Sequence record: PV357171.2 | Length of the DNA: 64,000 nucleotides | Origin: a phage | Reading direction: 5' to 3' (one strand) | Shown: in pieces, positions 20,942-64,000 of the stretch | How positions within the stretch are numbered: position 1 is the first letter of the stretch | Layout: every line of letters starts with the position of its first letter | Notes under the pieces: model-generated | Told to the model about the DNA's origin: nothing | The model's input: only the letters and a program-made list of their open reading frames with translations | Database searches by the model: none | Program-made: the position numbers and the translations under genes

Positions 20942-21145
20942 ATGCAAGTATATGTCCTTACCAGAGATATAAATGAGTATAATCAGGATGGTGAGTATTT
21001 TGTAAAAGTATTCGCTGAAAAGCCAAGTAAACAACAGTTATTAGATGCTGGAGTACCGGAAGACCAAGCTAAGTGTTTACTACAAGATAAAGAGTTTACT
21101 GGAGATGCTTACGAATGCTTCTACCTTAACTGTGAGACTATTTAA
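20942..21145 (+). CDS. hypothetical protein
   Basis: 67 aa ORF after terminator. Confidence 0.45.
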   Translation: MQVYVLTRDINEYNQDGEYFVKVFAEKPSKQQLLDAGVPEDQAKCLLQDKEFTGDAYECFYLNCETI

Positions 21146-21146
21146 T

Positions 21147-21593
21147 ATGAGAGAGAAAGTAAATGAATTATTAATCGAGGAAGCTAACAACTTTCCAATA
21201 AATAGGTTCATTAAATCGGATGGTTCTATTAATAGAACTAAGATTAAGCAGCTACATCCCGACTTTCAACAAGAAGCGCTAAACCTTATATTTATCAAGA
21301 AAGCTGTTGCAGCTCATGGGGCTTTCTTCGGGTATGAGCGTGTAAATTATAAGACAATGCAACAGCAAGTCGAGATCTATTGTCCAGACCATGATGGCTA
21401 TTACTGGCAAACTGCTAGATCTCATTTAGAAGGGCATGGTTGTCGACTGTGTGCACACAAGGTTGTGCAGCGTGTCACGGATTATGGAACTTATACCGTA
21501 CCAGCATGTTACCATAAATTTGTAATTGACGATAATCACATAGTTTGGTATAATAAGTTTTCAAAGCTAAGAATGGAGATAAGTAGTGAGTAG
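21147..21593 (+). CDS. hypothetical protein with Cys/His-rich C-terminal half
   Basis: Start set at ATG directly after the upstream stop (track start 21045). Confidence 0.45.
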   Translation: MREKVNELLIEEANNFPINRFIKSDGSINRTKIKQLHPDFQQEALNLIFIKKAVAAHGAFFGYERVNYKTMQQQVEIYCPDHDGYYWQTARSHLEGHGCRLCAHKVVQRVTDYGTYTVPACYHKFVIDDNHIVWYNKFSKLRMEISSE

Positions 21594-40268: not shown

Positions 40269-40494
40269 GGAAGCATTCTACAAGAAATATGAGCATGAGT
40301 TAGTTAGGGACGTGGTAACATTGTGCCAGCACCATCACCAATTATTACATAAGGTTTACACAAAAGAACCTCCTTTATTTTCTGCTAATAAGCAAAAAGT
40401 GTGGGTTCAAAAGCAGAAAGACAAATTACAGAATCCTCAAGAAAAGACACAAGTCAAGACTGAAACAAAATCAGGATTCGCAAGGTTCTTATAA
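40201..40494 (+). CDS. hypothetical protein (uncertain; overlaps neighbours)
   Basis: 97-aa track ORF overlapping the 3' end of 39630..40268 and abutting the portal start. Confidence 0.25.
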   Translation: MGFLILQEVRNFLMLLLKMLSNREAFYKKYEHELVRDVVTLCQHHHQLLHKVYTKEPPLFSANKQKVWVQKQKDKLQNPQEKTQVKTETKSGFARFL

Positions 40495-41594
40495 TGGGTT
40501 TTAAAAGCTGGATTACTGAAAAGCTAAATCCGGGTCAACGTATTATAAGAGACATGGAACCAGTTAGTCATCGCACTAACCGTAAGCCTTTTACCACTGG
40601 ACAAGCCTACAGTAAAATTGAGATTCTCAATAGAACTGCTAATATGGTTATAGATAGTGCGGCGGAGTGTTCTTATACTACTCTCTTAAATGTACGACCT
40701 AATCCATTCATGGATATAAGCACATTCCGTAGACTTGTAGTCACTGACCTACTTTTTGAAGGTTGTGCATACATCTATTGGGATGGCACATCGCTTTACC
40801 ATGTCCCTGCTGCACTGATGCAAGTAGAGGCAGATGCCAATAAGTTTATCAAAAAATTTATATTTAATAACCAGATAGACTATCGCGTAGATGAGATTAT
40901 CTTTATAAAAGATAACAGTTACGTGTGTGGCACAAATTCTCAAATTTCTGGACAATCTCGCGTTGCTACTGTTATTGACTCTCTTGAGAAGCGTTCTAAG
41001 ATGCTTAACTTTAAAGAGAAATTCCTCGATAACGGAACTGTGATTGGTCTTATTCTTGAGACGGATGAAATCCTGAACAAGAAATTGCGTGAGCGTAAAC
41101 AAGAAGAATTACAACTAGATTATAATCCTAGTACTGGTCAGTCCTCTGTCCTGATAGACTTTAAGGAAGACATCGAAGGATTTAATAAATCCATCTGTCT
41201 AGCCTTTGGTGTTCCGCAAGTGCTACTTGATGGCGGTAATAATGCGAACATTCGACCAAACATCGAATTGTTCTACTATATGACTATCATTCCTATGCTG
41301 AACAAGCTGACTAGTTCTCTTACTTTCTTTTTTGGTTATAAGATTACTCCTAATACTAAGGAAGTAGCTGCATTAACACCAGATAAAGAAGCTGAGGCTA
41401 AACATTTAACCTCATTGGTTAATAATGGTATTATGACTGGTAACGAGGCTCGTTTAGAGCTGAACCTTGAACCTTTAGATGATGAGCAGATGAATAAGAT
41501 TCGTATTCCTGCTAACGTTGCTGGTTCTGCAACAGGTGTATCTGGTCAAGAAGGTGGTAGACCTCAAGGTTCCACCGAGGGAGATAAAGAATGA
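40494..41594 (+). CDS. portal protein
   Basis: 366 aa between terminase and protease/capsid genes; true start may lie upstream. Confidence 0.6.
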   Translation: MGFKSWITEKLNPGQRIIRDMEPVSHRTNRKPFTTGQAYSKIEILNRTANMVIDSAAECSYTTLLNVRPNPFMDISTFRRLVVTDLLFEGCAYIYWDGTSLYHVPAALMQVEADANKFIKKFIFNNQIDYRVDEIIFIKDNSYVCGTNSQISGQSRVATVIDSLEKRSKMLNFKEKFLDNGTVIGLILETDEILNKKLRERKQEELQLDYNPSTGQSSVLIDFKEDIEGFNKSICLAFGVPQVLLDGGNNANIRPNIELFYYMTIIPMLNKLTSSLTFFFGYKITPNTKEVAALTPDKEAEAKHLTSLVNNGIMTGNEARLELNLEPLDDEQMNKIRIPANVAGSATGVSGQEGGRPQGSTEGDKE

Positions 41595-42738: not shown

Positions 42739-43296
42739 ATGACTATTGATATTAATAAGCTGAAAGAAGAACTTGGTCTGGGTGATCTGGCTAAATCTCT
42801 GGAAGGTCTGACCGCTGCTCAGAAAGCTCAGGAAGCTGAACGTATGCGTAAAGAGCAGGAAGAAAAAGAACTGGCTCGTATGAATGACTTGGTTTCTAAA
42901 GCAGTTGGCGAAGATCGTCAGAAACTGGAACAAGCTCTGGAACTGGTTAAGTCCCTGGATGAAAAATCTAAGAAGAGCGCAGAACTGTTTGCACAGACTG
43001 TAGAAAAGCAGCAGGAAACTATTGTTGGTCTCCAGGACGAAATCAAATCTCTGCTGGCAGCTCGTGAAGGGCGTTCCTTCGTCGGTGATAGTGTGGCTAA
43101 AGCACTGTACGGTACTCAAGAAAACTTTGAAGACGAAGTGGAGAAACTGGTTCTTCTGTCCTACGTGATGGAAAAAGGTGTATTTGATACCGAACATGGT
43201 CAGAGACACTTGAAAGCTGTAAACCAGTCTTCTTCTGTAGAAGTTTCTAGTGAAAGCTATGAAACTATTTTCTCCCAGCGTATCATCCGTGACTGA
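42739..43296 (+). CDS. major capsid protein precursor, N-terminal part (scaffolding delta domain and start of N-arm)
   Basis: 185 aa coiled-coil-rich segment ending ...FSQRIIRD then stop; the frame continues in 43250..43972. Confidence 0.6.
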   Translation: MTIDINKLKEELGLGDLAKSLEGLTAAQKAQEAERMRKEQEEKELARMNDLVSKAVGEDRQKLEQALELVKSLDEKSKKSAELFAQTVEKQQETIVGLQDEIKSLLAAREGRSFVGDSVAKALYGTQENFEDEVEKLVLLSYVMEKGVFDTEHGQRHLKAVNQSSSVEVSSESYETIFSQRIIRD

Positions 43297-43972
43297 GGTT
43301 AAAGGTGCTCTGACTGAAATCCACTTCAGTACTTACAAACTGGCTGCTAAGTCCTTCATTACTGATGAAACTGAAGAAGATGCAATCTTCTCCCTGCTGC
43401 CGCTGCTGCGTAAACGTCTGATTGAAGCACACGCTGTTTCTATCGAAGAAGCGTTTATGACTGGTGATGGTACTGGTAAACCTAAAGGTCTATTGACTCT
43501 TGCTAGCGAAGATGGTGCTAAAGTTACTACTGAAGCTAAAGCTGATGGTTCTGTTCTGGTAACTGCTAAGACTATCTCTAAACTGCGTCGTAAACTGGGC
43601 CGTCATGGTTTGAAACTGTCCAAACTGGTACTGATTGTATCTATGGATGCTTACTACGATCTGCTGGAAGATGAAGAATGGCAGGATGTTGCTCAAGTTG
43701 GTAATGATGCTGTTAAACTGCAGGGTCAGGTTGGTCGTATTTATGGTCTGCCGGTTGTAGTTTCTGAATACTTCCCAGCTAAAGCGGTTGATAAAGAGTT
43801 CGCAGTTATTGTTTATAAAGATAACTTCGTAATGCCACGTCAGCGTGCTGTTACTGTTGAACGTGAGCGTCAAGCTGGTAAACAGCGTGATGCATACTAC
43901 GTTACTCAGCGTGTTAACCTGCAACGTTACTTTAGTAATGGCGTTGTATCTGGTGCTTACGCTGCATCTTAA
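43250..43972 (+). CDS. major capsid protein, HK97-fold C-terminal part (other frame)
   Basis: 240 aa; ...EEDAIFSLL...IEEAFMTGDG... pattern typical of HK97-fold capsid proteins. Confidence 0.65.
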   Translation: MKAMKLFSPSVSSVTEVKGALTEIHFSTYKLAAKSFITDETEEDAIFSLLPLLRKRLIEAHAVSIEEAFMTGDGTGKPKGLLTLASEDGAKVTTEAKADGSVLVTAKTISKLRRKLGRHGLKLSKLVLIVSMDAYYDLLEDEEWQDVAQVGNDAVKLQGQVGRIYGLPVVVSEYFPAKAVDKEFAVIVYKDNFVMPRQRAVTVERERQAGKQRDAYYVTQRVNLQRYFSNGVVSGAYAAS

Positions 43973-47228: not shown

Positions 47229-48128
47229 ATGTACTACTCTCTAATGAGAGAGTCAAAAGTTATAGTTGAGTATGATGGTAGGGCATTTCATTTTGATGCC
47301 CTATCAAACTATGATATACAGACTTCCTACGAGGAATTCAAGACTCTTCGTAGGACTGTTCATCGTAGAACTAACTATGCAGACTCTATTATAAATGCTC
47401 AAACCCCCTCTTCTATCTCTCTAGCAGTAAATTTCAGTAATACTCTTACTGAGGCTAACTTCTTTGAATGGTTAGGTTTTGATAGAAAAGGTAATACTTT
47501 CTTACTCCCGCTATATAGTAGTAATATTGAACCTATTATGTTCAATATCTATATAGTAAATAAAGATAATAACTGTGTATATTTTGAAAACTGTTATGTA
47601 TCTACAGTAGATTTTTCTTTAGATAAGAACATACCAATTCTTAATGTTGGTATTGAGTCTGGGAAATTCTCAGAAGTATCTACGTATAGAGAAGCAGCTT
47701 CTATTATACAGGGTGAAGTAATGTCTTACAGCCCAGTAATAGCTTCTACTAATGGCAGCATCTTACCCGGTCTTATTTCTGCCTCTTTATCTTTCCAGCA
47801 GCAGTGCTCCTGGAGAGAGGATAAGAGTGTTTTTGATATAAATAAAATTTATAATAATAAAAGAGCCTATGTAACTGAAATGAATGCTTCGGCAACCATT
47901 TCTCTGTACTACTTAAAACGTTTTGCAGGAGATATGGTTTATAATATAGAACCGGAGACAGATGTACCTTTAATGATAAGAAATAATAATATTTCTATAG
48001 ATTTTCCTTCAGCACGTATTACAAAACGCCTAGAGTTCTCAGATGTGTATAGAGTTGAGTGGGATATTATACCTATTGCTTCTTCAGACCCAGTGAGAAT
48101 AGATTTCTTTGGAGAAATTAAAAAATGA
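47229..48128 (+). CDS. tail protein (p140-like baseplate tube protein), putative
   Basis: 299 aa between tail tube and chaperone genes. Confidence 0.4.
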   Translation: MYYSLMRESKVIVEYDGRAFHFDALSNYDIQTSYEEFKTLRRTVHRRTNYADSIINAQTPSSISLAVNFSNTLTEANFFEWLGFDRKGNTFLLPLYSSNIEPIMFNIYIVNKDNNCVYFENCYVSTVDFSLDKNIPILNVGIESGKFSEVSTYREAASIIQGEVMSYSPVIASTNGSILPGLISASLSFQQQCSWREDKSVFDINKIYNNKRAYVTEMNASATISLYYLKRFAGDMVYNIEPETDVPLMIRNNNISIDFPSARITKRLEFSDVYRVEWDIIPIASSDPVRIDFFGEIKK

Positions 48129-48590: not shown

Positions 48591-48959
48591 ATGACTAAAC
48601 AACAATATTTAATACTTTGTGAATCAATGGGTATAGAACCTGATCCTAAGGCTATGCCTGTTGAACTTGAAGACTTTCCACCTATTGTAGCTATTAGTAT
48701 GAATATTTATAATAGTCTAGTTGACTGTTTCATACCTGGCGACTTTCCTATATTTATAGGTAAAGACAAGGCTGCTTTAGGTGTTTTATTCGATATTTAT
48801 GGGATTACTGATCCCATAGAAAAAGAATTTGTTCTACACATTATCAATATATTTGATTCTAAAGCTGTAGACGCTGCACGTAAACGTGCTGAGAAGCATA
48901 AGCCGCAAAACGGTAGAATACCTAACGTTAAGCCACATGCTAAATCTCGAGCACGGTAA
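48591..48959 (+). CDS. tail assembly chaperone, putative
   Basis: 122 aa, basic C-terminus. Confidence 0.4.
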   Translation: MTKQQYLILCESMGIEPDPKAMPVELEDFPPIVAISMNIYNSLVDCFIPGDFPIFIGKDKAALGVLFDIYGITDPIEKEFVLHIINIFDSKAVDAARKRAEKHKPQNGRIPNVKPHAKSRAR

Positions 48960-48994
48960 AAGTTTCCTCCAATGGGCGTTCCACGATGAGGCTT

Positions 48995-49028
48995 GGCTCT
49001 GGGTGATTTGCCCAGAGCCTTTTTTATT
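48995..49028 (+). terminator. terminator-like hairpin
   Basis: GGCTCTGGG-tgatttg-CCCAGAGCC followed by TTTTTTATT. Confidence 0.55.
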
Positions 49029-49042
49029 GGGAAAAATAAAAT

Positions 49043-52000
49043 ATGACTGATAAGCTAATACGAGAATTACTAATAGACGTTAAACAGAAGGGGGCAACCC
49101 GTACTGCAAAGTCTATTGAAAACGTATCTGATGCATTAGAGAACGCTGCTGCTGCTTCTGAACTAACAAATGAACAGTTAGGTAAAATGCCCAAAACTCT
49201 ATACTCCATTGAGAGGGCAGCAGATAGAGCAGCGAAAAGTCTTACTAAAATGCAAGCTAGCAGAGGTATGCTTAGTATTACTAAATCTATTAATGATATA
49301 GGAGCTAAGTTAGATGATCTCGCTATTACAATGATTGAAGTAGCAGATAAATTAGAAATCGGATTTGATGGAGTTTCTAGATCTGTTAAAACAATGGGCA
49401 ATGATGTTGCAGCTGCAACAGAGAAAGTTCAAGATAGGCTGTATGATACTAATAGAGCCTTAGGTGGTACAGCTAGAGGTTTTAATGATACTACTGGTGC
49501 CGCTGGTAGAGCTTCTAGAGCTATCGGTAATACCTCTGGCTCAGCACGCGGTGCAACTCGTGATTTCGCGGCAATGGCTAAGATAGGGGGTGGTTTACCT
49601 ATCCTGTATGCTGCAATTGCATCTAATATATTTGTTCTTCAGTCCGCTTTTGAGGGCCTAAAAGTAGGTGATCAATTAAACAGACTGGAACATTTTGGCA
49701 CTATCGTTGGGACTATAACGGGTACACCAGTACAGACGTTAGCTCTGGCACTACAAAACGCTACTAACGGTGCTGTATCCTTTGAAGAAGCTATGAGACA
49801 AGCGTCTTCTGCTTCAGCTTATGGATTTGATAGTAAACAATTAGAACAGTTCGGACTAGTAGCCCGTCGTGCTGCTGCTGTTCTTGGTGTTGACATGACC
49901 GACGCACTTAACCGTGTAATTAAAGGCGTATCTAAGCAAGAAATAGAACTTCTAGACGAACTTGGTGTTACTATTCGCCTTAACGATGCGTATGCAAATT
50001 ATGTTAAACAGCTAAATGCTACCAGTACAGGCATTAAATATACTGTAGATAGCCTGACTACCTACCAGAGACAACAAGCATATGCAAATGAAGTTATAGC
50101 AGAATCTACTAGACGTTTCGGATACCTAGATGATGCTCTTAAGTCAACTTCTTGGGAGCTATTTGCTGCTAATGCTAACTCTGCCCTAAGAAGCCTACAA
50201 CAAAGCGCAGCAACATACTTAACCCCTGTTGTAGACACCATCAATGCTTTCTTATATCAAACTAAATCTTCTCAGATGAGGATTTCCGCAATGGCACGCA
50301 GTGCCTCTGCTAAAACCACTCCTACTGAAAATGTTACGGCTCTCATAGAAAACGCTGTAGGTGCACAAGAAGATCTAGATACTTACCTTAAAGAAAGTGA
50401 TGCTCGTGTTAAGAAAGCTCAAGAGATTAAACAGCAGTTAGATGATCTCAAGGCAAAACAAGCTGTTACTGCTCCAGTAGCTAACGCACTTACTGCTGTG
50501 GGCATTGGAGGCGATGAAAGTAATAAATTAGTAGTACAACTTACTAATGAACTGGCTCGTCAAAACCAAGAAATAGCAGAACGCGCTAAAACCGAAAAAG
50601 TTCTCAAACAAGCAGTGGAAGATACTGGGCAAGCCTTACTGCGTAATAGTAATCTAGCTAAGCAATTAGGAGCCAATATGCAGTATGCTGCCACTGCTAT
50701 TCCTGGAGAGACCGGGGTATTTAAGATTGATCCTAATAATCTTAAAGCGGCTGCAGAGGTACAGAAGAACTATGACCAGCTAAAGAAAAGCTCTAGTGAT
50801 ACTGCAAATAATATAAAAATGGCAGCTACTAACATTACCACTGCCAAAAAAGCATCAGGTGACTTAGTTAGCATTATAAAAGCAGTAGGAGATACTGCTA
50901 AGGTAACAGGGCAAAATACAGATACTCTAGTTAAAAATCTGAATCTAGGCTTTGAAAATCTAGATCAAATGAAGGCTGCGCAGAAAGGTCTATCAGAATA
51001 TGTAACTGCTATGGATAAGAATGAGCAGAATGCACTGGAAGTAGCTAAACGTAAAGACGAGGTTTATAACCAGACTAAAGACAAAGCTAAAGCGGAGGCA
51101 GCAGCTAGAGAGGTGCTACTACGTCAGCAACAGGAACAGCTCACAGCAGCAAAAGCACTACTGGCTGTTAATCCAAACGATCCAGAGGCTCTAAAGCAGG
51201 TAGCTAAGATAGAAACAGAGATTCTTAATACTAAAGCTCAGGGATTTGAGAACGCTAAGAAAACTAAAGATCTGACAGATAAAATTCTTGGTGTAGATCG
51301 TGAGATAGCTCTCCTGAATGACCGCACTATGACGAGTACTCAGTATCGTCTAGCACAATTAAGGCTAGAGCTACAATTAGAGCAGGAAAAAACGGAATTA
51401 TATTCTAAACAAGCGGATGGCCAAGCTAAAGCAGAACAGTCTAGACGTGCCCAAGCACAAATAAGTAGAGAACTGTGGGAAGCAGAGAAACAAGCTACTG
51501 CCTCGCATGTGTCAGCTCTCATGGATGCCTTAGAAGTTAACCAAACTCAGAGAAATGTCACTGGTCAATCCCAGATTCTTACTGAAAGGTTATCCATTCT
51601 GCAACAACAGCTGGAGTTGTCTAAAGGTAATACTGAAGAAGAAATTAAATATCGTAATGAGATTTATAAAACTTCAGCAGCCTTAGAACAGCTTAAAAAG
51701 CAAAGAGAGAGTCAGATGCAGCAACAGGTAGGATCTTCATTAGGTGCTGTGTACACTCCTACAACTGGTCTATCTGGGGCAGATAAAGATTTTGCTGATA
51801 TGCAGAATAAGATGGCTTCTTATGACCAGGCTATTTCTAAGCTGTCTGAGTTAAATTCCGAAGCAACAGCTGTAGGTCAAAGCCTTGGTAATTTAACTAA
51901 TGCTATGATTCATTTCTCACGGGGATCTCTAGATACTACGTCTATGATTGCGGCAGGTATGCAAGCTGTATCTTCCGTAATTCAGTATAGTACTAGCCAG

Positions 52001-53426: not shown

Positions 53427-56272
53427 AAAAAATATTAGATAGTGCTAGAAACTACTTAAAAAATAATAGCAGAATAAAAACTGCTAGTCTAATTTCTCTA
53501 GAATTACCCGGCTCTACTGGTACTAGTACTGCTTTTATTTACTTAACTGACTATTTTAGAGATGTACTATATAATGGTATTTTGTACCAGGCCGGTAAAG
53601 TTAAGTCTATTAGCACACATAAACAAAATAGAGATTTATCTATTGGCAGCCTATCTTTTACTATTACAGGTACAGCGCAGGATGAAGTACTGAAATTAGT
53701 GCAGAATGGTGTGTCTTTTTTAGATAGATTAGTATCAATTCACCAAGCAATTATTACAGAAGATGGTTCTATTTTACCTGTAGACCCAGACACAAATGGG
53801 CCTTTATTATACTTTAGAGGTAGAATTACTGGTGGAGGTATTAAGGATAATATTAGCACTTCGGGAGTTGGAACCTCCACAATTACTTGGAATTGTTCTA
53901 ACCAATTCTATGATTTTGATAGGGTTAATGGTAGATTTACTGATGATGCTTCTCATAGAGGGCTTGAAGTTGTAGCAGGGCAATTAGTTCCATCTAACGG
54001 GGCTAAAAGACTTGAGTATCAAGAAGATTATGGGTTCTTTCATGCCAATAAAAGTATCTCTATTCTAGCAAAATATCAGGTACAGGAAGAAAGATACAAG
54101 CTAAAGTCTAAGAAAAAGCTATTTGGCCTATCTAGAAGTTATAGTCTTAAAAAGTATTATGAGACTGTTACTAAAGAAGTAGATATAGATTTTAACCTTG
54201 CTGCTAAGTATCTACCAGTAGTTTATGGTGTACAGAAAATACCGGGAATACCTATTTTTGCGGATACGGAATTACACAATCCTAATATAGTTTACGTAGT
54301 ATATGCTTTTGCTGAAGGAGAGATAGACGGTTTTCTTGACTTTTCCTTTGGGGATAACCCTATGATTTGTATGGACTCTAATGATAGCTCTGCTAGAACC
54401 TGTTTCGGTGTTAAAAAAGTAGCCGGAGACACCATGCAAAGAATAGCATCAGGAACACCTTCTAGTAGTCCTTCCGTGCATGGGCAGGAGTATAAGTATA
54501 ATGATGGGAATGGTGACATAAGAATTTGGACGTATCATGGAAAACCTGACCAAACGGCTTCTGAAGTACTAGTAGATATAGCTAAAGAACGTGGGTTCTA
54601 CCTTCAGAATATGAATGGCAATGGACCGGAGTACTGGGATGCTAGGTATAAACTACTAGATACTGCATACGCAGTGGTGCGCTTCACTATTAATGAAAAT
54701 AGGACTGAGATTCCTGAAGTTAGTGCTGAAATTCAAGGTAAAAAAGTAAAAGTCTATCATTCTGATGGTAGAGTAACTGCTAATAGTACTAGTTTAAATG
54801 GTATTTGGCAAACACTTGATTACTTAACCTCTGATAGATATGGCGCTAATATTACCATTGATCAGTTCCCCCTTCAGCAATTAATACAGGAAGCAGATAT
54901 TTTAGATATTATAGATGAATCCTATCAGGTATCTTGGCAGCCATATTGGAGATACGTTGGGTGGACTGATCCACTAGCAGAAAATAGACAAATAGTACAA
55001 ATGAATACTATTCTGGATACATCTGAATCAGTATTTAAAAATGTGCAAGGTTTGTTAGAGTCCTATGGTGGGGCTATTAACAATTTATCTGGCCAGTATA
55101 GGGTTACTGTAGAAAAATACTCTAATACTCCATTAGAGATTAATTTTCTAGACACTTACGGTGATTTGGAGCTATCTGATACTACCGGTAGAAATAAATT
55201 CAACTCAGTTCAAGCATCTATTGTGGATCCCGCCCTTAGCTGGAAAACTAATTCCATTACCTTCTATAATTCCAAGTATAAGGAACAGGACAAAAACCTG
55301 GATAAAAAACTACAATTATCTTTTGCAAATATAACTAACTACTATACTGCTAGAAGTTTTGCAGACAGAGAACTTAAGAAATCTAGGTATTCTAGAACCC
55401 TCTCATTCTCTTTACCATATCAATTCATTGGTATTGAGCCTAACGATGCTATTGCATTTACATACGACCGTTACGGATGGGATAAGAAGTACTTTTTAGT
55501 AGATGAAGTAGAAAACTCTAGAGAAGGAAAGATAAATGTTACTCTACAGGAATATGGTGAAGATGTATTTATCAACTCTGATCAAGTAGATAATAGTGGT
55601 AATGATATACCAGATATTAGTAACAACGTTCTTCCTCCTAGGGATTTTAAATATACTCCTACACCCGGTGGTTTAGTTGGTTCTATAGGAAAAAATGGTG
55701 AGTTATCTTGGCTTCCAAGCTTAACTAATAACGTAGTTTATTATTCTATCGTACATTCCGGTCATGCTGAGCCTTATACTGTGCAGCAACTAGAAACAAA
55801 TCCCAATGAACGCATGATCCAAGAGATAATTGGAGAGCCTGCAGGCTTAGCGATATTTGAAATAAGAGCTGTGGATATAAACGGTAGAAGAAGTTCTCCA
55901 GTAACATTATCTATAGAACTTAACTCTGCTAAAAACCTAAGTGTAGTATCTAATTTTAGGGTAACTAATACGGCTTCCGGGGATGTAACTGAATTTGTAG
56001 GCCCAGATGTAAAACTAGCTTGGGATAGGATACCGGAAGAAGATATAATAGAAAGTATATTCTATACTCTGGAAATCTATGATTCCCAGAATAGAATGCT
56101 AAGAAGTGTACGTATTGAAAATCAGTATACTTATGACTATTTATTAATGTATAATAAGGCAGATTTTGCTCTTCATAACAGTGATGCTCTAGGAATCAAT
56201 AGAAAACTATATTTTCGTATTAGAGCAGAAGGAGATGATGGGGAACAGTCTGTGGAGTGGGCATCCATTTAA
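53423..56272 (+). CDS. baseplate hub / tail tip protein (pb3-like)
   Basis: 949 aa; size and position match T5 pb3 as recalled. Confidence 0.65.
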   Translation: MKKILDSARNYLKNNSRIKTASLISLELPGSTGTSTAFIYLTDYFRDVLYNGILYQAGKVKSISTHKQNRDLSIGSLSFTITGTAQDEVLKLVQNGVSFLDRLVSIHQAIITEDGSILPVDPDTNGPLLYFRGRITGGGIKDNISTSGVGTSTITWNCSNQFYDFDRVNGRFTDDASHRGLEVVAGQLVPSNGAKRLEYQEDYGFFHANKSISILAKYQVQEERYKLKSKKKLFGLSRSYSLKKYYETVTKEVDIDFNLAAKYLPVVYGVQKIPGIPIFADTELHNPNIVYVVYAFAEGEIDGFLDFSFGDNPMICMDSNDSSARTCFGVKKVAGDTMQRIASGTPSSSPSVHGQEYKYNDGNGDIRIWTYHGKPDQTASEVLVDIAKERGFYLQNMNGNGPEYWDARYKLLDTAYAVVRFTINENRTEIPEVSAEIQGKKVKVYHSDGRVTANSTSLNGIWQTLDYLTSDRYGANITIDQFPLQQLIQEADILDIIDESYQVSWQPYWRYVGWTDPLAENRQIVQMNTILDTSESVFKNVQGLLESYGGAINNLSGQYRVTVEKYSNTPLEINFLDTYGDLELSDTTGRNKFNSVQASIVDPALSWKTNSITFYNSKYKEQDKNLDKKLQLSFANITNYYTARSFADRELKKSRYSRTLSFSLPYQFIGIEPNDAIAFTYDRYGWDKKYFLVDEVENSREGKINVTLQEYGEDVFINSDQVDNSGNDIPDISNNVLPPRDFKYTPTPGGLVGSIGKNGELSWLPSLTNNVVYYSIVHSGHAEPYTVQQLETNPNERMIQEIIGEPAGLAIFEIRAVDINGRRSSPVTLSIELNSAKNLSVVSNFRVTNTASGDVTEFVGPDVKLAWDRIPEEDIIESIFYTLEIYDSQNRMLRSVRIENQYTYDYLLMYNKADFALHNSDALGINRKLYFRIRAEGDDGEQSVEWASI

Positions 56273-58329
56273 TGATTTCGAATAATGCACCAGCCAAAAT
56301 GGTCTTAAATAGTATAATGACTGGATATACAATGGCATATGTCCAGCACTCTATATATACTGACTATGACGTTATTGGTAGATCTTTTTGGTTAAAAACA
56401 GGGGAAAGTATAGATAGACGTGATTATACTGGTATAGATACTTTCTTCGTAATGATTAATAACCTGACCCCTTCAACCTCTTACGAGATTCAAGGGGCTT
56501 TTTATGATTCTATTATAGACTCTGAGCTATTAGAGGCTAAGATCGGTATAAATTTATCTAATAAAACTACCTTTAGTACTAAGAGAAAACCTACTATTAC
56601 TGCTGCTCGATCAGAAGCAGATCCAGTAGATGTGGGTGTTGGTGCTCCAATAGTAGTTATAGAAACTACGGGAGAAGCTAGTTATTGTACTATTGAGCTA
56701 AAGAGTACTCAACCTTCAAATAGCCCGTGGGTAAAGCATTATATAGGTCCACTATCCCCCACTATTAGATTTGGTGGTGTTCCTGTTGGGGATTACAAAG
56801 TACGCATATCAGGGCAAGTTACTATGCCTGATGGTGTAACGGTAGACTCCTCTGGGTACTTTGAATTTTCCAAAGTTCTTACTGTAGAATATAACTTTGT
56901 ACCTCCTACTGCTCCTAATAACATTACCTTCAAAGCTGCAAGAATAGCGGATGGTAAAGAGAGATATGACCTTCGTGTACAGTGGGAGTGGAATAGGGGA
57001 TCTGGAGCCAATGTTCGAGAATTTGTCGTTTCTTATATAGATTCCACAGAATTTGCAAGAACTGGATGGACTAAAGCTCAAAAAATTAACGTAGGTGCTG
57101 CACAAGCGGCAACTATTATATCGTTCCCGTGGAAAATTGAGCATAAATTTAAAGTCTCCTCTATAGCGTGGGGGCCAGATGCTCAAGATGTAACAGATTC
57201 TGTAGTACAGACTTTTATACTAAATGAGGATACCCCTCTTGATAATAGTTTTGTTAATGAAACTGGTATAGAAGTAAACTATGCGTATATTAAAGGTAAG
57301 ATTAAAGATGGCTCCACGTGGAAGCAAACATTTTTAATCGATGCTACTACTGGTGCTATTAATATAGGTCTTCTAGATGCTGAAGGAAAAGCACCAATAT
57401 CTTTTGATCCGATTAAAAAGATAGTTAACGTTGATGGTAGTGTTATAACTAAAACTATCAATGCTGCTAACTTTGTAATGACCAATCTAACTGGCCAAGA
57501 TAACCCTGCAATCTATACTCAAGGTAAAACTTGGGGGGATACAAAATCTGGTATCTGGATGGGAATGGATAACACTTCTGCTAAGCCAAAGCTAGATATA
57601 GGTAATGCTACTCAGTGGATACGCTATGATGGCGATGTGCTACGTATTTCTAGTGGAGTTGTTATTGGAACTCCTAATGGTGATGTAGATATTGGTACTG
57701 GGATGCAGGGTAAGCAAACAGTATTTGTTTATAAGTTAGCAACATCTCTACCCGCTAAACCACTAGAACAAGATTATCCGCCTCCTGGTTGGTCAAAAAC
57801 TCCACCTAATCGTACAGATATGACACAAAATATCTATGCGACTACTGGTACACTTGATCCAGTTACTAACAAACTTCTTGAAGGTACTAGCTGGTCTGAT
57901 GTAGTTCAATGGAGCGGTACTGAAGGTACTATTGGTGCAGATGGTCAAAGGGGTCCTGGCATGTATTCCTTAGGTATTCCAGGTCTTGGTGGTTGGGATG
58001 ATGGGCAAGCTAATACCTTCTTCCAGAATAACTTTGGTAGTCCACCCGTTAGATATGATGTATTGACTGAGTTTAATAGTAATGCTCCGCAATCTGCATT
58101 TACTCGTCAATGGAATGGTTCCGGTTGGGTTAATCCAGCAATGGTACTGCATGGCGATATGATAGTTAACGGTACGGTAACCGCCAGTAAGATTGTAGCA
58201 AATAATGCCTTCTTATCTCAGATCGGTGTTAACGTTATTTATGATAGAAACGCTGCATTATCTGATAATCCGGAAGCCTATTACAGAATGAAGATAGACC
58301 TGCAAAACGGGTACATCCATATAAGGTAA
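56272..58329 (+). CDS. tail tip / central fiber protein (pb4-like)
   Basis: Start set at ATG overlapping the pb3 stop (track start 56257). Confidence 0.55.
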   Translation: MISNNAPAKMVLNSIMTGYTMAYVQHSIYTDYDVIGRSFWLKTGESIDRRDYTGIDTFFVMINNLTPSTSYEIQGAFYDSIIDSELLEAKIGINLSNKTTFSTKRKPTITAARSEADPVDVGVGAPIVVIETTGEASYCTIELKSTQPSNSPWVKHYIGPLSPTIRFGGVPVGDYKVRISGQVTMPDGVTVDSSGYFEFSKVLTVEYNFVPPTAPNNITFKAARIADGKERYDLRVQWEWNRGSGANVREFVVSYIDSTEFARTGWTKAQKINVGAAQAATIISFPWKIEHKFKVSSIAWGPDAQDVTDSVVQTFILNEDTPLDNSFVNETGIEVNYAYIKGKIKDGSTWKQTFLIDATTGAINIGLLDAEGKAPISFDPIKKIVNVDGSVITKTINAANFVMTNLTGQDNPAIYTQGKTWGDTKSGIWMGMDNTSAKPKLDIGNATQWIRYDGDVLRISSGVVIGTPNGDVDIGTGMQGKQTVFVYKLATSLPAKPLEQDYPPPGWSKTPPNRTDMTQNIYATTGTLDPVTNKLLEGTSWSDVVQWSGTEGTIGADGQRGPGMYSLGIPGLGGWDDGQANTFFQNNFGSPPVRYDVLTEFNSNAPQSAFTRQWNGSGWVNPAMVLHGDMIVNGTVTASKIVANNAFLSQIGVNVIYDRNAALSDNPEAYYRMKIDLQNGYIHIR

Positions 58330-58332
58330 ATA

Positions 58333-58755
58333 ATGAGTACTGAAAATAGAGTTATAGACTTAGTAATAGATGAGAAAGTACCATATGGTTTAATGATGCA
58401 GTTCTTAGATGTTGATGATAGTACTTATCCACCTACAAGTACCCCTGTTAACTTAACTGGGTATTCTCTAAGGGGTACTATAAAAAATAGCCTAGATGAG
58501 AATGCGGAGATATTGGCATCCTTTACTACTAATATTATTGATGCTGCTCAAGGGGCTGTAGCTATAAGTTTACCAGTAGAATCTGTGGAGAATATAGGAG
58601 CTAAAGCATCTAAAGATAGAGATAAATATAATCCTCGTCAGCGATTCGCAGGATACTATGATATAATTATGACTAGAGATGTTATAGGATCTGCAATTAG
58701 CTCCTTTCGTATAATGGAGGGTAAAGTATTTATCAGTGATGGGGTAACTAAATAA
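58333..58755 (+). CDS. collar protein (p132-like)
   Basis: 140 aa immediately upstream of the fiber gene. Confidence 0.5.
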
Positions 58756-61103
58756 TGGCAGTAACTACTAAGATTATTGTACAACAGATACTAAATATTG
58801 ATGATACTAAAGCTACTGCTAGTAAATTTCCTAGATATACAGTAACTCTTGGTAACTCTATTAGCTCTATTACTGCAAGTGAGTTAGTATCATCTATTGA
58901 GGCCGCAGCTAAGTCTGCTGCAGCTGCAAAAGACTCTGAAATAGCTGCTAAGACTTCAGAGCTTAATGCTAAGAACTCTGAACAGGAAGCTGCTATTTCT
59001 GCTGGAGCTTCTGAAGCCTCTGCCACTCAGTCCGCTACATCTGCTACTCAATCTGCAGAATCAGCGGATAGATCTGCAGAATCAGCCGCAGCAGCTAAAG
59101 TATCAGAGACTAATGCGAAAGCTAGTGAAACTAAAGCTAAAACATCCGAGACTAATGCAAAAGCCTCAGAAACTAATGCAAAGTCTAGTGAAACCAAAGC
59201 TAAAACCTCGGAAACTAATGCTAAAACTAGTGAAACCAACGCTGCTGCTTCCGCTGCTGCTGCAAAAATTAGTGAGACTAATGCTAAGACTAGTGAGACT
59301 AATGCTGCTGAGTCTGCTGCGTCTGCTGCCGATTCTAAAGGTTTTAGGGATGAAGCAGAAACATTTGCTGCACAAGCGGCTGCCTCTGCTGCGGCTGCTA
59401 AAGTATCCGAGACTAAGGCAAAAACATCAGAAACTAATGCAAAGTCTAGCGAAACTAAAGCTAAGGCTAGTGAAACAAATGCTGCTAGTTCTGCAACTTC
59501 AGCTAGTCAATCAGTAACCACTATTCAAGGTCTAAAATCTGACGTTGAGGAATTAAAATCTGATACTCAAACCATAAAGAATAGTGCTGTAACTGAGACA
59601 ACAGCTTTAAAAAATCAAGCGGCTACTTCTGCAACTAATGCTGCTGCATCTGCTACTGAAGCGGGAAAACAAGCTACTAATGCTGCTAATAGTGCTAATA
59701 GTGCTAAAACTGAGGCTGACCGTTCAAAAACTGAAGCTGATCGTGCTAAAGCTGAGGCAGATAGATCTGAAGCCGCTATTAATGATACTCCTGAGCTGCA
59801 GCCGTTACCTGATGTATGGATACCTTTTAATGACTCCTTAGATATGATTACCGGCTTCTCACCTAGCTATAAAAAGATTATAATTGGTGACGATGAAATT
59901 ACAATGCCTGGTGACAAGATTGTTAAGTTTAAACGTGCATCAACTGCGACATATATTAATAAATCCGGCGTTTTCACTGTTGCGGGAATTGATGAACCAC
60001 GTTTTGAACGTGATGGTCTGCTTATTGAGGGGCAAAGAACAAACTATATTCTTAACTCCCTTACTGTTTCTAAATGGGGTGCATCTTCGTGGTTGACAAT
60101 CTCATCAAGCGGAGTTGATAGCTTTGGTTTTACATATGGCCGATTTGATGTTCAGTCTAGTAATGTTGGAAGCACAACATCCGGTAATATTGCTGTGGCT
60201 CCTTCACCAAGAGCTTTTGACGTTACTGGTGATGAGAAGTATTGCACTATATCTTGCCGATGCAAATGTGAATCAGACATAGATATTCGATGCAGACTCC
60301 GATTTGAGAACTACGACGGGACTGCCACATCCTTCATTGGCGATGCGTACATGAATATGCAGACTTTAGATATAACAACTACAGGTGGAGCAGCAGGTAG
60401 AATTACAGCTAAAGCGGTCAAGGATAATGCTACAGGATGGATATTTTTTGAAGCGACAATAAAAGCACTAGATACCGAAAATATGATTGGTGGCCAAGTT
60501 CAGATAGCACCATCTCAAAGAGTTGGATCTTTTGCAGATGGCGATCATATTATTGTTGCAACGCCGCAATTTGAAGGTGGGGCGACTGCATCGTCATTCA
60601 TCATATCTGATACAGTTGCAGCGACAAGGGCTAGCGATATGGTGACAGTGCCAATTAAAAACAATCTTTATAGCTTACCTTTTACGGTTCTTTGTGAGGT
60701 ACATAAGAATTGGTACAAAACACCGAATGCAGCACCGCGAGTTTTTGATACTGCAGGTCATCAAACTGGAGCAGCAATCATTCTTGGATTTGGTTCTTCA
60801 ACAAATTACGATGGGTTTCCATATTGCGATATTGGTGGGTCTAACCGACGTGTTAACGAAAACGCATCGCTTGAAAAAATGGTTATGGGGATGCGTGTGA
60901 AAGAAGATCAGATGACATGTGCGATAAGTAATGGGCGTATATCTAGTGAGACAAAGACAACTTGGACTTATATTCAAAGCTCTGCAACCATTCGTATAGG
61001 TGGTCAGACAACAACAGGGCAGCGTCATTTATTCGGGCATGTCAGAAATTTTCGAGTATGGCATAAAGCATTGACTGACCGTGAATTGAAGGAGTCGGTA
61101 TGA
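58755..61103 (+). CDS. L-shaped tail fiber protein (LtfA-like) with Ala/Ser/Thr-rich repeat stalk
   Basis: 782 aa; N-terminus [14 protein letters not shown]...SISSITAS; tandem SETNAK-type repeats. Confidence 0.6.
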   Translation: MAVTTKIIVQQILNIDDTKATASKFPRYTVTLGNSISSITASELVSSIEAAAKSAAAAKDSEIAAKTSELNAKNSEQEAAISAGASEASATQSATSATQSAESADRSAESAAAAKVSETNAKASETKAKTSETNAKASETNAKSSETKAKTSETNAKTSETNAAASAAAAKISETNAKTSETNAAESAASAADSKGFRDEAETFAAQAAASAAAAKVSETKAKTSETNAKSSETKAKASETNAASSATSASQSVTTIQGLKSDVEELKSDTQTIKNSAVTETTALKNQAATSATNAAASATEAGKQATNAANSANSAKTEADRSKTEADRAKAEADRSEAAINDTPELQPLPDVWIPFNDSLDMITGFSPSYKKIIIGDDEITMPGDKIVKFKRASTATYINKSGVFTVAGIDEPRFERDGLLIEGQRTNYILNSLTVSKWGASSWLTISSSGVDSFGFTYGRFDVQSSNVGSTTSGNIAVAPSPRAFDVTGDEKYCTISCRCKCESDIDIRCRLRFENYDGTATSFIGDAYMNMQTLDITTTGGAAGRITAKAVKDNATGWIFFEATIKALDTENMIGGQVQIAPSQRVGSFADGDHIIVATPQFEGGATASSFIISDTVAATRASDMVTVPIKNNLYSLPFTVLCEVHKNWYKTPNAAPRVFDTAGHQTGAAIILGFGSSTNYDGFPYCDIGGSNRRVNENASLEKMVMGMRVKEDQMTCAISNGRISSETKTTWTYIQSSATIRIGGQTTTGQRHLFGHVRNFRVWHKALTDRELKESV
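59097..59505 (+). repeat. tandem about 18-nt repeats inside the fiber gene (encode ~6-aa SETNAK/SETKAK units)
   Basis: Repeated AGTGAAACTAA(A/T)GC(T/A)AAA-type units read in the sequence. Confidence 0.5.
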
Positions 61104-61375
61104 AAGACTTAACTATGAAATTTAAGGACAAGAAAGCATTTGAGGATTTTCTTGTGGTTATTGATTGGGAAGGTAATGAAACTTTGCAAAATCAAATAAT
61201 ACTTGATGTTATCGGATATACTTATACACAAACTGGTGGCTCAGAGGAAGAGCCCATATATACCCAGAATGGGGGATATTATGTGAACGTAAGGGTTATT
61301 GATGATTCAATTGACTTCACTCAATACAGTGATCATAGTGTTATTCTTGAACAGTCTCTTAGAGAGTGGGCATAA
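61100..61375 (+). CDS. hypothetical protein
   Basis: 91 aa; ATGA overlap with the fiber gene stop. Confidence 0.45.
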   Translation: MKDLTMKFKDKKAFEDFLVVIDWEGNETLQNQIILDVIGYTYTQTGGSEEEPIYTQNGGYYVNVRVIDDSIDFTQYSDHSVILEQSLREWA

Positions 61376-61384
61376 GGTTTTATA

Positions 61385-63128
61385 ATGGTAACTAAAACAG
61401 TAATTCCTACGGATATTACAAAACTTAAAAATGAGTCACTTAATAAAAATAATAACCTGAGTGACTTAGCAGACCGTGCAGCAGCCTGGCTAAATGTGCG
61501 TCCTATTGGGTCCACCCCTCTTGCGGGGGATCCTGTTGGGGGACTATGATGCCGCAACTAAACGTTGGGTAGAGAATAAGATTAACACTGGTACAGTTGG
61601 ACCCACTATGAATGGTGTTATGAACTACGGTGTTGGTGATTTCCACCTTCGAGATAGCCGTGCATACATTCAACCATACGAGGTGGTTTCTGATGGGCAG
61701 CTCCTTAATAGGGCTGACTGGCCGGAGCTTTGGTCTTACGCTCAAATGGTGGGGGCAATTAGTGATGCAAAATGGTTAGCAGATCCACATGAGAGAGGCA
61801 AATACTCAGTTGGTGATGGTCGAACAACCTTCCGTGTTCCTGATCGAAATGGTGTTCAATCTGGCTCCTTTAAAGGTCTTTTTGGACGTGGTGATAGTGG
61901 GGTAACTTCTAACCTCGGTAGAACGAATGAGTCTTCTGCTCCTAACTTAACTGCCTACTTCAGAACCGTAACTGATACGTCAATTATTGAAAATGATGCT
62001 GCAAGTGGTGCTGGATACCCATCCGAGGCATACCAAAAATATGCTCGGCTAAGCGCTATTAAAGAAGAGGCTGCACTAGAAATATACCCACGTAGATGGA
62101 ACTTTGATGCTTCTCGCCAATCTAGTGTATATGGGCGTTATGGTAATACAGATGAGATTACACCTAATAACTTCACCGGTGTATGGGTAATCCGGGCGTC
62201 TGGTGGTTTCGTTGCAGCAAATACATCTTGGAGTGTTATTAACGGCGATGCGACCAGACCAACAGACAGCACAAGAGTTGAATCAGGGAAAGTAAGCGTA
62301 GAATATAAGATTGGAACGGCTATTGAGGCGCAGGGTAAAGTCTATACTGCTGCAACAATGGGCGGGACATATTCTACCCAGCTCTCTGTTAAAAATGCCA
62401 CTACGGGTAAAGAGAAAGATATCAGCGTCACAGAAGATGGTGATCTGTGGTCTGACCGCTTTAAGGGTAGATTTGGCACCCGTATGGCTTGGAGTCAGAC
62501 CGGCTGGGTCTATGGCACATTTTCCCAAGCCAACCAAGCCATCGGTAACGACTACAGTTTCTACAGTATTCTTAGCGGCTCCCAAAGTTCAAGCTCGGGC
62601 TATAAAACTCATACCCATATTGGTCAAATCCATAATGACAATGGTTCATTTGCTGATAGCTGCTGGCATGTTGCAGGTGATGATGATAATAAATATGGTG
62701 TACGTTTAAAAATTCAGCCTAATAATAATAGTATTTATTTCTATTCTTGGTGGCCTAATGGTGCAGCAACCTATACTTTGCAATTAAATGCTATATCTGA
62801 TTCTCGCTTAAAGCATGATATTAAGGCTATAGATGCAACTAAATCCATCGAAATATTAAAAGGATTGGAATTCCAATCCTTTGTATATAATAACGATGAA
62901 AAATCTCGTATCCGACGTGGGGTTATTGCTCAGCAAGTAGAGACTATAGAACCACTTTATGTAAAAACTAGAAGATTTTATAATAATGATGGGGTAGAGC
63001 AAGAACAGAAGGAATTAGATACGACTCCAATGCTTCTTGACACTATGCATGTCGTGCAAGAACTTATAAAACGGATTGAATCTTTGGAAGAAGAACTCAA
63101 GCAATTAAGAGCAAACCTAGTGCAATAA
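61385..63128 (+). CDS. tail fiber protein (LtfB-like) with C-terminal intramolecular-chaperone (peptidase S74-like) domain; apparent frameshift in a G-run near 61520-61545
   Basis: Fiber-like N-terminal 54 codons from ATG 61385 end at TGA 61547-61549; body 61494..63128 is in another frame; C-terminus has SDSRLKHDI...coiled-coil typical of self-cleaving chaperone domains. Confidence 0.5.
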
Positions 63129-63136
63129 TGTAAGAA

Positions 63137-63177
63137 AACCCCAGTGGATTTTGTCCACTGGGGTTTATTATTTATTT
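63137..63177. terminator. bidirectional rho-independent terminator between convergent genes
   Basis: AACCCCAGTGGA-ttttg-TCCACTGGGGTTT hairpin flanked by T-rich tracts on both strands. Confidence 0.6.
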
Positions 63178-63187
63178 GATATGTAGA

Positions 63188-63634
63188 TTATTTATTTCCC
63201 GAACTTCCAAACCCGCCTTCACCACGATCAGTTTCCCCTAGTTCATCAACAATTTCAAAATTATGTGTTGAGTAGTGTGGTACTACTACCAACTGACAAA
63301 GTCTTTCAAAATTCTCCAGAGTTTGCATTTCAGAACCGTAATTATAGAGGTTCATCTTAATAGTACCACGATAGTCTGAGTCGATCACCCCTGCGGTGTT
63401 TGCGATCATCAGATGACGCTTACCTAAAGAGCTGCGAGGAACTACCAAACCGAACCAACCTCGCGGAATTTCTACCGCGACACCGGTGTCAATCATTAAG
63501 GATTTGCCTGGTGCAATAGCACGTAAATCTGCAGCAGGGTTAGTACCAAAGAATGCTCGCAGATCCATACCTGCGGCATCTTCGGAACCAATCTTAGGCA
63601 TACAATCTGGATGAGTTAATTTAATTTTAATCAT
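63188..63634 (-). CDS. dut: dUTP diphosphatase (dUTPase)
   Basis: 148 aa; AGMDLRA, GVIDSDYRG and RGEGGFGSSG dUTPase motifs. Confidence 0.9.
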   Translation of the reverse strand: MIKIKLTHPDCMPKIGSEDAAGMDLRAFFGTNPAADLRAIAPGKSLMIDTGVAVEIPRGWFGLVVPRSSLGKRHLMIANTAGVIDSDYRGTIKMNLYNYGSEMQTLENFERLCQLVVVPHYSTHNFEIVDELGETDRGEGGFGSSGNK

Positions 63635-64000
63635 TGTTCTGCAATCTCCAAAATATCTTTTGTAAACTTATCTAATACATCTTGACCTACAGCAGCAATA
63701 GCGTCCACACAGTAGGTAGGTAAATCAACTAAAATTAGGTTTCGATAAAGCAATTCTTCCGAAGCATTTAAATTCTGTATATATTTCTGTTTTCCAGGTA
63801 GTGGAAGCTGATCAATAATATCCAGAACGTTACCAAATTCACGAATAATATTATATCCGCGTTTTGCCCCAATACCTTCAACACCTCGGATATTATCCCC
63901 TAAATCACCCATAATTGCTTTCAGAGAGATAAACTGCTCTACATCGTCAACATTATGATGCTCGTACATATCACGAAGATGATATTCACGATGTGTTGTG
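63631..64000 (-). CDS. 5'-3' flap exonuclease (D15-like), C-terminal part; start beyond window end
   Basis: H3TH motif GDLGDNIRGVEGIGAKRG; reading frame continues past position 64000. Confidence 0.8.
   Translation of the reverse strand, partial: TTHREYHLRDMYEHHNVDDVEQFISLKAIMGDLGDNIRGVEGIGAKRGYNIIREFGNVLDIIDQLPLPGKQKYIQNLNASEELLYRNLILVDLPTYCVDAIAAVGQDVLDKFTKDILEIAEQ

Follow-up and report, generated by a model that had tools for sequence, protein, structure and literature searches.

A one-base expansion of a G run splits an LtfB-type second lateral tail fibre gene in the sequence of a T5-like phage

The window, which is the whole stretch of 64,000 nucleotides of phage DNA analysed here (sequence record PV357171.2), holds on its + strand two overlapping open reading frames, 61385-61549 and 61494-63128, that are two frames of one gene and not chance neighbours. 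The lesion that separates them is the change of GGGG into GGGGG at 61538-61542 (+), and both its exact position and its uniqueness to the window were observed in alignments, in a survey of the site in 31 loci and in allele scans. When this one-base insertion is removed, the gene split in the window (61385-63128, +) has 580 codons and is LtfB-like, i.e. a second lateral tail fibre gene. From the sequence, we put at about 0.5 the probability that the extra G is an artefact of sequencing, assembly or consensus calling and not phage biology.

Results

Identity of the gene and its place in the tail module

The window comes from a T5-like phage (Tequintavirus), and overall it matches Salmonella phage vB_SalS-SIA3lw (SIA3lw) best, at 95% over 39001-64000 and 99.8% over 61000-63200. 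The protein encoded by the repaired gene matches phrog_6921 over residues 3-577 (E 1.2e-183) and, in the annotation of FGS017, the top hit for PHROG 6921 is KM979355_p107, which is gp107 (LtfB) of DT571/2. On BLASTP the repaired protein shares 44% identity with DT571/2 LtfB (E 1e-140, residues 30-576 against LtfB 185-765). Its first 29 residues do not align with that protein, in which the N-terminal ~ 45 aa resemble phiEco32 gp15. On tblastn, matches to phages of 75-79 kb, including ECBP2 and SU10, start at fibre residue 49. A Peptidase_S74 intramolecular chaperone domain (PF13884, E 9.8e-13, 48.6 bits for a cut-off of 22) is predicted at the C-terminal end, at residues 471-523 of the repaired protein (62796-62954, +). 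Judged by these matches, the gene is an LtfB-type second lateral tail fibre (PHROG 6921) bearing an S74 chaperone.

The fibre gene closes the tail module, with ltfC and ltfA upstream of it and a convergent dut beside it. Indeed, it is preceded by a pb4-like ORF (56257-58329), an LtfC-like collar protein (58333-58755, +; Pfam LtfC PF23926), an LtfA-like first fibre (58755-61103, +) whose first 200 aa share 54% identity with DT571/2 LtfA, and an ORF of 91 aa and unknown function (61100-61375, +; phrog_1361), and dut (63188-63634, -) is found directly beyond it. This upstream context, 58333-61375, matches phrog_1419, phrog_5481 and phrog_1361. The same order of pb4, LtfC, LtfA-like fibre, 91-aa ORF, fibre and convergent dut is displayed by SIA3lw, and FGS017 shares the gene order of the window as well. 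The 91-aa ORF is conserved, has no Pfam hit and overlaps with its start the stop of the LtfA-like gene (ATGA); it is missing in DT571/2, where ltfA and ltfB adjoin, and it may help to assemble the fibres or serve as an adaptor. In the LtfA-like protein, the N-terminal third (58950-59800) is of low complexity, rich in Ala/Ser/Glu/Thr/Lys with repeated SETNAK/SETKAK units, and long spurious ORFs run through this region in other frames and on the opposite strand.

Among the closest known counterparts is LtfB (gp107) of DT57C/DT571/2, which like the window gene is a second fibre gene downstream of ltfC-ltfA and belongs to PHROG 6921 (Golomidova et al. 2016, PMC4728585). DT571/2 LtfB shares with the window fibre the block GDPVGDYDA(A/V)TKRWVENKINTGTVGPTMNGVMNYGVGDFHLR, which spans the break, but it is longer, with 767 aa of which ~ 185 are extra N-terminal residues. 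Furthermore, the order in DT571/2 is ltfC-ltfA-ltfB-dut, to which the window adds the 91-aa ORF between the fibre genes, and the LtfA-like protein has 782 aa in the window compared to 1039 aa in DT571/2. In DT57C/DT571/2, LtfB has been shown genetically to be a branch attached via LtfA and it recognises a second O-antigen (PMC4728585; PMC10713586), and its phiEco32 gp15-like N-terminal part has been proposed to dock it on LtfA. By homology and according to this literature, the product of the window gene would form a trimeric side-fibre branch, of which the C-terminal S74 domain would fold the trimer and then cleave itself off. MS-MS of purified virions identified the SIA3lw orthologue (predicted 64.3 kDa, 20 peptides, 46% coverage), the SIA3lw genome having been sequenced on Illumina MiSeq (PMC12752171).

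Two fragments in two frames

The upstream fragment (61385-61549, +) is an ORF of 54 codons, from ATG 61385 to the stop TGA 61547-61549. The true start codon of the gene is here, with the Shine-Dalgarno-like TAAGGT before it, and the first 52 codons genuinely encode the N-terminus; after them come out-of-frame G, L and TGA. The downstream fragment (61494-63128, +) is an ORF of 544 codons whose ATG stands directly 3' of TAA 61491-61493, and no purine-rich Shine-Dalgarno was found in the letters upstream of this ATG, GCAGCCTGGCTAAATG. Given that the offset of the two starts is 109, or 3n+1, the fibre body is in the +1 frame. The ATG at 61494 is a fallback start: 16 out-of-frame codons come after it, and the genuine body begins at about codon D53 (61542) and continues for 528 codons with no further stop or indel. 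Two G5 runs are present, at 61525-61529 (GCGGGGGAT) and at 61538-61542 (TTGGGGGAC). An earlier note on this DNA had described the two ORFs, the TAA, the missing Shine-Dalgarno and the G runs, and a direct check of the sequence confirmed all of its coordinates; its proposal that a +1 change within 61494-61549 would give one fibre protein was correct too, as the second run minus one G yields a continuous protein of 580 aa.

On tblastn, residues 1-52 of the SIA3lw fibre match the frame of the 54-codon ORF at 100% identity and residues 53-580 match the frame of the fibre body, so that both window ORFs together are one annotated 580-aa CDS of SIA3lw. In the window, reading from ATG 61385 would leave the frame after codon 52 and end at the TGA; were the extra G an artefact, the gene of the real phage would be read without a break, ...PLAGDPVGDYDAATKRWVENK... 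at the junction. An internal promoter or restart serving the body ORF was considered and rejected: weak 9-of-12 promoter-like matches alone were found for it, in a number below chance expectation, and the nearby ATGs 61546 and 61549 are in the third frame and yield a peptide of 8 aa.

Position of the extra G

The SIA3lw gene and the repaired window gene differ by 2 substitutions in 1743 nt, both of them non-synonymous (N203T and T462I). In a three-way alignment the junction differs at one spot only, where the window has GTTGGGGGAC, SIA3lw has GTT-GGGGAC and FGS017 has GTT-GAGGAC. Hence, in contrast to the window with its GGGGG, SIA3lw has G4 at the site and a single uninterrupted fibre ORF of 580 codons, and FGS017, with GAGG at the site, has an uninterrupted fibre CDS of 581 codons. 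Over 55000-64000 the window shows 48 substitutions relative to SIA3lw and exactly one gap, which is the extra G. The earlier note had suspected both G runs, and the suspicion held for the second one. The first run (61525-61529, +) is in frame and identical in SIA3lw, FGS017 and VSe12, and GCGGGGGAT is also found in three other loci (L009, L010 and L013); this run was rejected as a cause because it is unchanged in intact relatives.

Conservation among related fibres

The N-terminal 130 aa of the repaired protein, used as a tblastn query, matched 257 phage records, and in 90 of these a single locus spans 80% of the query or more. Among the 60 matches listed, the one found in two pieces is VSe12. 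The motif PLAGDPV(G/N)DYDAxTKRWV, which spans the break, is in a single frame in 30 of the 31 related IMG/VR loci, VSe12 being the exception, and varies across these loci according to PLA(G/S/A)D(P/A)V(G/N)(D/P)YDA. In larger fibres this motif often lies well inside the protein, as it does in DT571/2 LtfB (residues 195-210), and therefore it cannot be a gene boundary.

The length of the G run at the site is 1 base in 13 of the 31 loci, 2 bases in 10, 3 in two and 4 in six, and no locus has 5. The Gly/Asn codon at the site varies freely (GGG, GGA, GGT, GGC, AAC and AAT) with 18 different 9-mers in the 31 loci, and intact relatives display GGGG, GAGG, GGA, GGT, GGC, AAC or AAT at the position of the lesion. 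Exact-pattern scans of viral, metagenome and genome collections found the G4 allele and gave 0 matches for the exact G5 allele. Alignment with the LtfB-like proteins of related phages, a check suggested in the earlier note, thus shows a single intact gene in which the break is the window's extra G, and no homologue was found with a conserved separate small gene upstream and a fibre start at the equivalent of 61494. The preference expressed in that note for an indel in a G homopolymer over biological slippage was borne out, neither the two-frame layout nor the G run being conserved.

The VSe12 homologue (locus L007, NC_048794.1, 2501-4230) is broken by an extra C (C4 to C5) in CCACCCCT, 23 nt upstream of the position of the window's G run, and again further downstream. 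In its RefSeq annotation the gene was started at the ATG equivalent to 61494 and appears as 'tail fiber protein' fragments of 277 aa and 80 aa. The VSe12 break is probably a second instance of homopolymer error, or of decay, affecting this gene, and it resembles the one in the window by a one-base homopolymer expansion and by the same fallback ATG being annotated. A further break in a lateral fibre gene set is known from T5, the reference of which has a frame-shift error in LtfC (gp135/136) according to Ayala et al. (PMC10713586). Unlike the break in the window, those of VSe12 and T5 LtfC concern other runs or genes, and VSe12 has more breaks downstream.

The block AAWLNVRPIGSTPLAGDPVGDYDAATKRWVEN...GPTMNGVMNYGVGDFHLRDSRAYIQPYEVVSDGQLLNRADWPELW (61470-61760 in the window, loci L008-L038) shows 60-95% identity among the fibres of very different phages, its carriers being T5-like phages of ~ 110 kb as well as contigs or records of ~ 45 kb, 68 kb and 77 kb. 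Since it is found at differing depths in these proteins, it looks like a module for adaptor and receptor-binding functions that is exchanged among phage families.

Other frame breaks and deletions in the window

To find indels, the window was compared with the SIA3lw genome by blastn and tblastn. The earlier note had counted the fibre break as a third frame disruption and as the second one in a homopolymer. Two other breaks relative to SIA3lw are indeed present, but neither of them is a homopolymer indel, and the systematic homopolymer error that the note had inferred found no support, as no other window-specific homopolymer indel was found in coding sequence. The remaining isolated indels relative to SIA3lw fall in intergenic, RBS or terminator sequence.

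Two differences, at 48120 (A6 instead of A5) and at 21125 (2 nt), were rejected as window errors, both being common to many phages. The A6 run at 48120 is at the stop/start overlap of a minor tail protein gene and a tail assembly chaperone gene; the A5 of SIA3lw alters the last residues of its upstream protein and all 25 records listed have the A6 of the window, which makes SIA3lw the odd one. The 2-nt difference at 21125, CTACCTCTTAAC against CTACCTTAAC, is in a homing-endonuclease-like gene (20942-21590) that is a 217-aa CDS in SIA3lw and in two frames in the window. GEC_vB_N5, SP15, phiLLS and many other T5-like phages are colinear with the window over this gene, with 2-3 small ORFs annotated; its two-frame form is a shared natural state and not a window error, and the gene is probably a decayed mobile gene. 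Moreover, the ORF at 48886-49050, which overlaps the tape-measure chaperone gene, was rejected as a frameshift extension because it crosses a terminator hairpin.

The major capsid gene (42739-43972) is split into ORFs of 185 aa and 240 aa in different frames by a window-specific, out-of-frame loss of 143 nt (~ 48 codons) at ~ 43293/43294. The missing segment is present in SIA3lw, in LmqsSP1 and in all best-matching related records listed, and the deletion junction, CGTGAC|TGAGGTT, has GTGA microhomology. Such a deletion would be lethal in a real phage and points to a fault in assembly or consensus calling, or to a defective genome. The portal gene (40494-41594) is reduced from 405 codons to 366 by the clean loss of two in-frame blocks, 60 nt at 40679|40680 and 57 nt at 41155, with microhomology of at most 1 nt at the junctions. 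All 15 top matches listed for the portal region (98.4-98.5% identical) span 1218 nt, compared to 1101 nt in the window.

Discussion

Recoding and two-gene explanations

The fragments could be thought of as a recoding site, in which G5 is real, some full-length fibre is made and the site acts as an attenuator or leaky switch. This is very improbable on the evidence. Programmed +1 frameshifting is known from E. coli prfB and from the structural genes of Listeria phage PSA, and the window resembles these sites in that a +1 shift close ahead of an in-frame UGA would restore the product, and in having a G-rich, Shine-Dalgarno-like run upstream. Indeed, a +1 shift anywhere from the G run to the TGA restores the full-length 580-aa protein. 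One route would be a +1 slip of tRNA-Gly on G_GGG_GAC, from GGG at 61538-61540 to GGG at 61539-61541, with perfect re-pairing, an in-frame UGA three codons downstream and the wild-type sequence regained. A second one would be a slip at CUA_UGA beside the Shine-Dalgarno-like GGGGG, giving ...PVGGLDAATK..., and here the window's GGGGG-A-CUA-UGA loosely recalls the prfB site, AGGGGG-UAU-CUU-UGA. However, the spacing from the Shine-Dalgarno-like run to CUA is 1 nt where that of prfB is 3 nt, and tRNA-Leu(UAG) should re-pair poorly on UAU. No stimulatory RNA structure was found around or downstream of the site (fold z of -0.43 relative to shuffled sequence) and no frameshift-suppressor tRNA was found in the window, where all 15 phage tRNAs have ordinary three-base anticodons.

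SIA3lw, the nearest relative with two substitutions in the gene, makes the protein conventionally with no shift, and the two-frame layout and the G run are unconserved in the 31 loci and in at least 90 records. The features by which programmed frameshifting is recognised, namely conservation of the two frames, conservation of a slippery sequence and a stimulatory element, are thus absent here, and unlike at the prfB and PSA sites the sequence is not conserved. A conserved programmed frameshift is ruled out by the single frame of 30 of the 31 loci, the varied site, the lack of structure and the ordinary tRNAs, and recoding predicts at most leakiness at background level. Transcriptional slippage would not be efficient on a run as short as G5. 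The hypermutable poly-G contingency tracts in receptor-binding genes of Campylobacter phages have ~ 9 G or more, and a tract of this kind was rejected for the window, where the run has 5 G and the 1-4 G of relatives stem from ordinary codon changes. That G5 is genuine and a little full-length LtfB is made by a tRNA-Gly slip aided by the rarer GGA codon and the UGA, or that the population flips between G5 and G4, is slightly more doubtful still; in such a case the short run would be a leaky or reversible off-switch for a branch fibre that extends the host range. Artefact or mutation alike, we are highly confident that the event is non-programmed.

Two genuine genes, a small protein of 54 aa and a fibre with a shorter N-terminus starting at ATG 61494, are what mechanical ORF calling yields, and RefSeq did annotate VSe12 from the equivalent ATG. 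That layout of VSe12 is itself due to its extra C, however, and in the window there is no Shine-Dalgarno before 61494 and the first 16 codons are an out-of-frame reading of the conserved motif, which all other homologues read in a single frame and often deep inside larger fibres. Furthermore, exact-protein look-ups did not find the 54-aa and 544-aa products recorded as called proteins; a look-up of the LtfA-like protein found no record either. The two-gene explanation is effectively refuted, with hardly any probability left to it.

Artefact or genuine mutation

A single gene with a derived, window-specific insertion is expected of an artefact and of a genuine mutation alike, and from the sequence alone an artefact has about even odds while a genuine mutation leaving a viable LtfB-null phage falls somewhat short of them. 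Homopolymers are a classic place for consensus errors, and an artefact is favoured by the homopolymer site, by the unique allele, by the otherwise intact gene body and by the other unique defects of the window, which are incompatible with viability. Indeed, the lethal-looking deletions in the capsid and portal genes mean that the sequence as given is not a faithful viable genome, which raises the prior for an artefact. Against it stands the observation that no second uncompensated homopolymer indel specific to the window was found in coding sequence, although the window has 154 runs of A5, 43 of A6, 13 of T6, 22 of G5 and 3 of G6; from an error-prone platform one would expect more indels, especially in the longer runs. 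Moreover, the other window-specific defects are errors of another type, namely block deletions.

A genuine extra G would be the product of recent replication slippage, a spontaneous +1 insertion that turned G4 into G5 and knocked out LtfB, an explanation to which we give a little under half of the probability. The phage would then make a stub of 54 residues and no functional second fibre, it would be viable except on hosts that require LtfB, and G5 would easily revert to G4; taken as a whole, this outcome too is quite possible, if not quite an even bet. The direct experimental analogue of the window's truncation at codon 54 is the engineered DT571/2 ltfB Q45-opal mutant, cut at almost the same place, which grows normally on laboratory and rough strains while the LtfB-dependent host is lost (PMC4728585). 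Lateral tail fibres are likewise non-essential on rough hosts (PMC10713586). Since LtfB is dispensable on permissive hosts such as rough laboratory strains (PMC4728585), a genuine and easily revertible null mutation is a strong alternative. The lack of other homopolymer errors in the rest of the window argues for it as well, and the otherwise intact gene body fits a very recent event. On the other side are the absence of the G5 allele from the viral, metagenome and genome collections and the presence, in the same window, of the capsid frameshift deletion and the two portal deletions. Both substitutions relative to SIA3lw are non-synonymous, yet two are too few to indicate relaxed selection.

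Implications

The finding is an ordinary one, a corrected annotation with no new mechanism. The locus should be annotated as one LtfB-like lateral tail fibre of 580 aa with a suspected one-base error or frameshift mutation, and it should neither be entered as a small hypothetical protein plus a truncated fibre nor be counted as a recoding site. Given the deletions unique to it in the portal and capsid genes, the sequence should be verified at read level before it is used. If the extra G is real, the second fibre branch would be missing and, by analogy with the DT571/2 ltfB mutants, the phage would have lost the hosts whose O-antigen is recognised by LtfB, a loss that would be relevant to its use in biocontrol or therapy.
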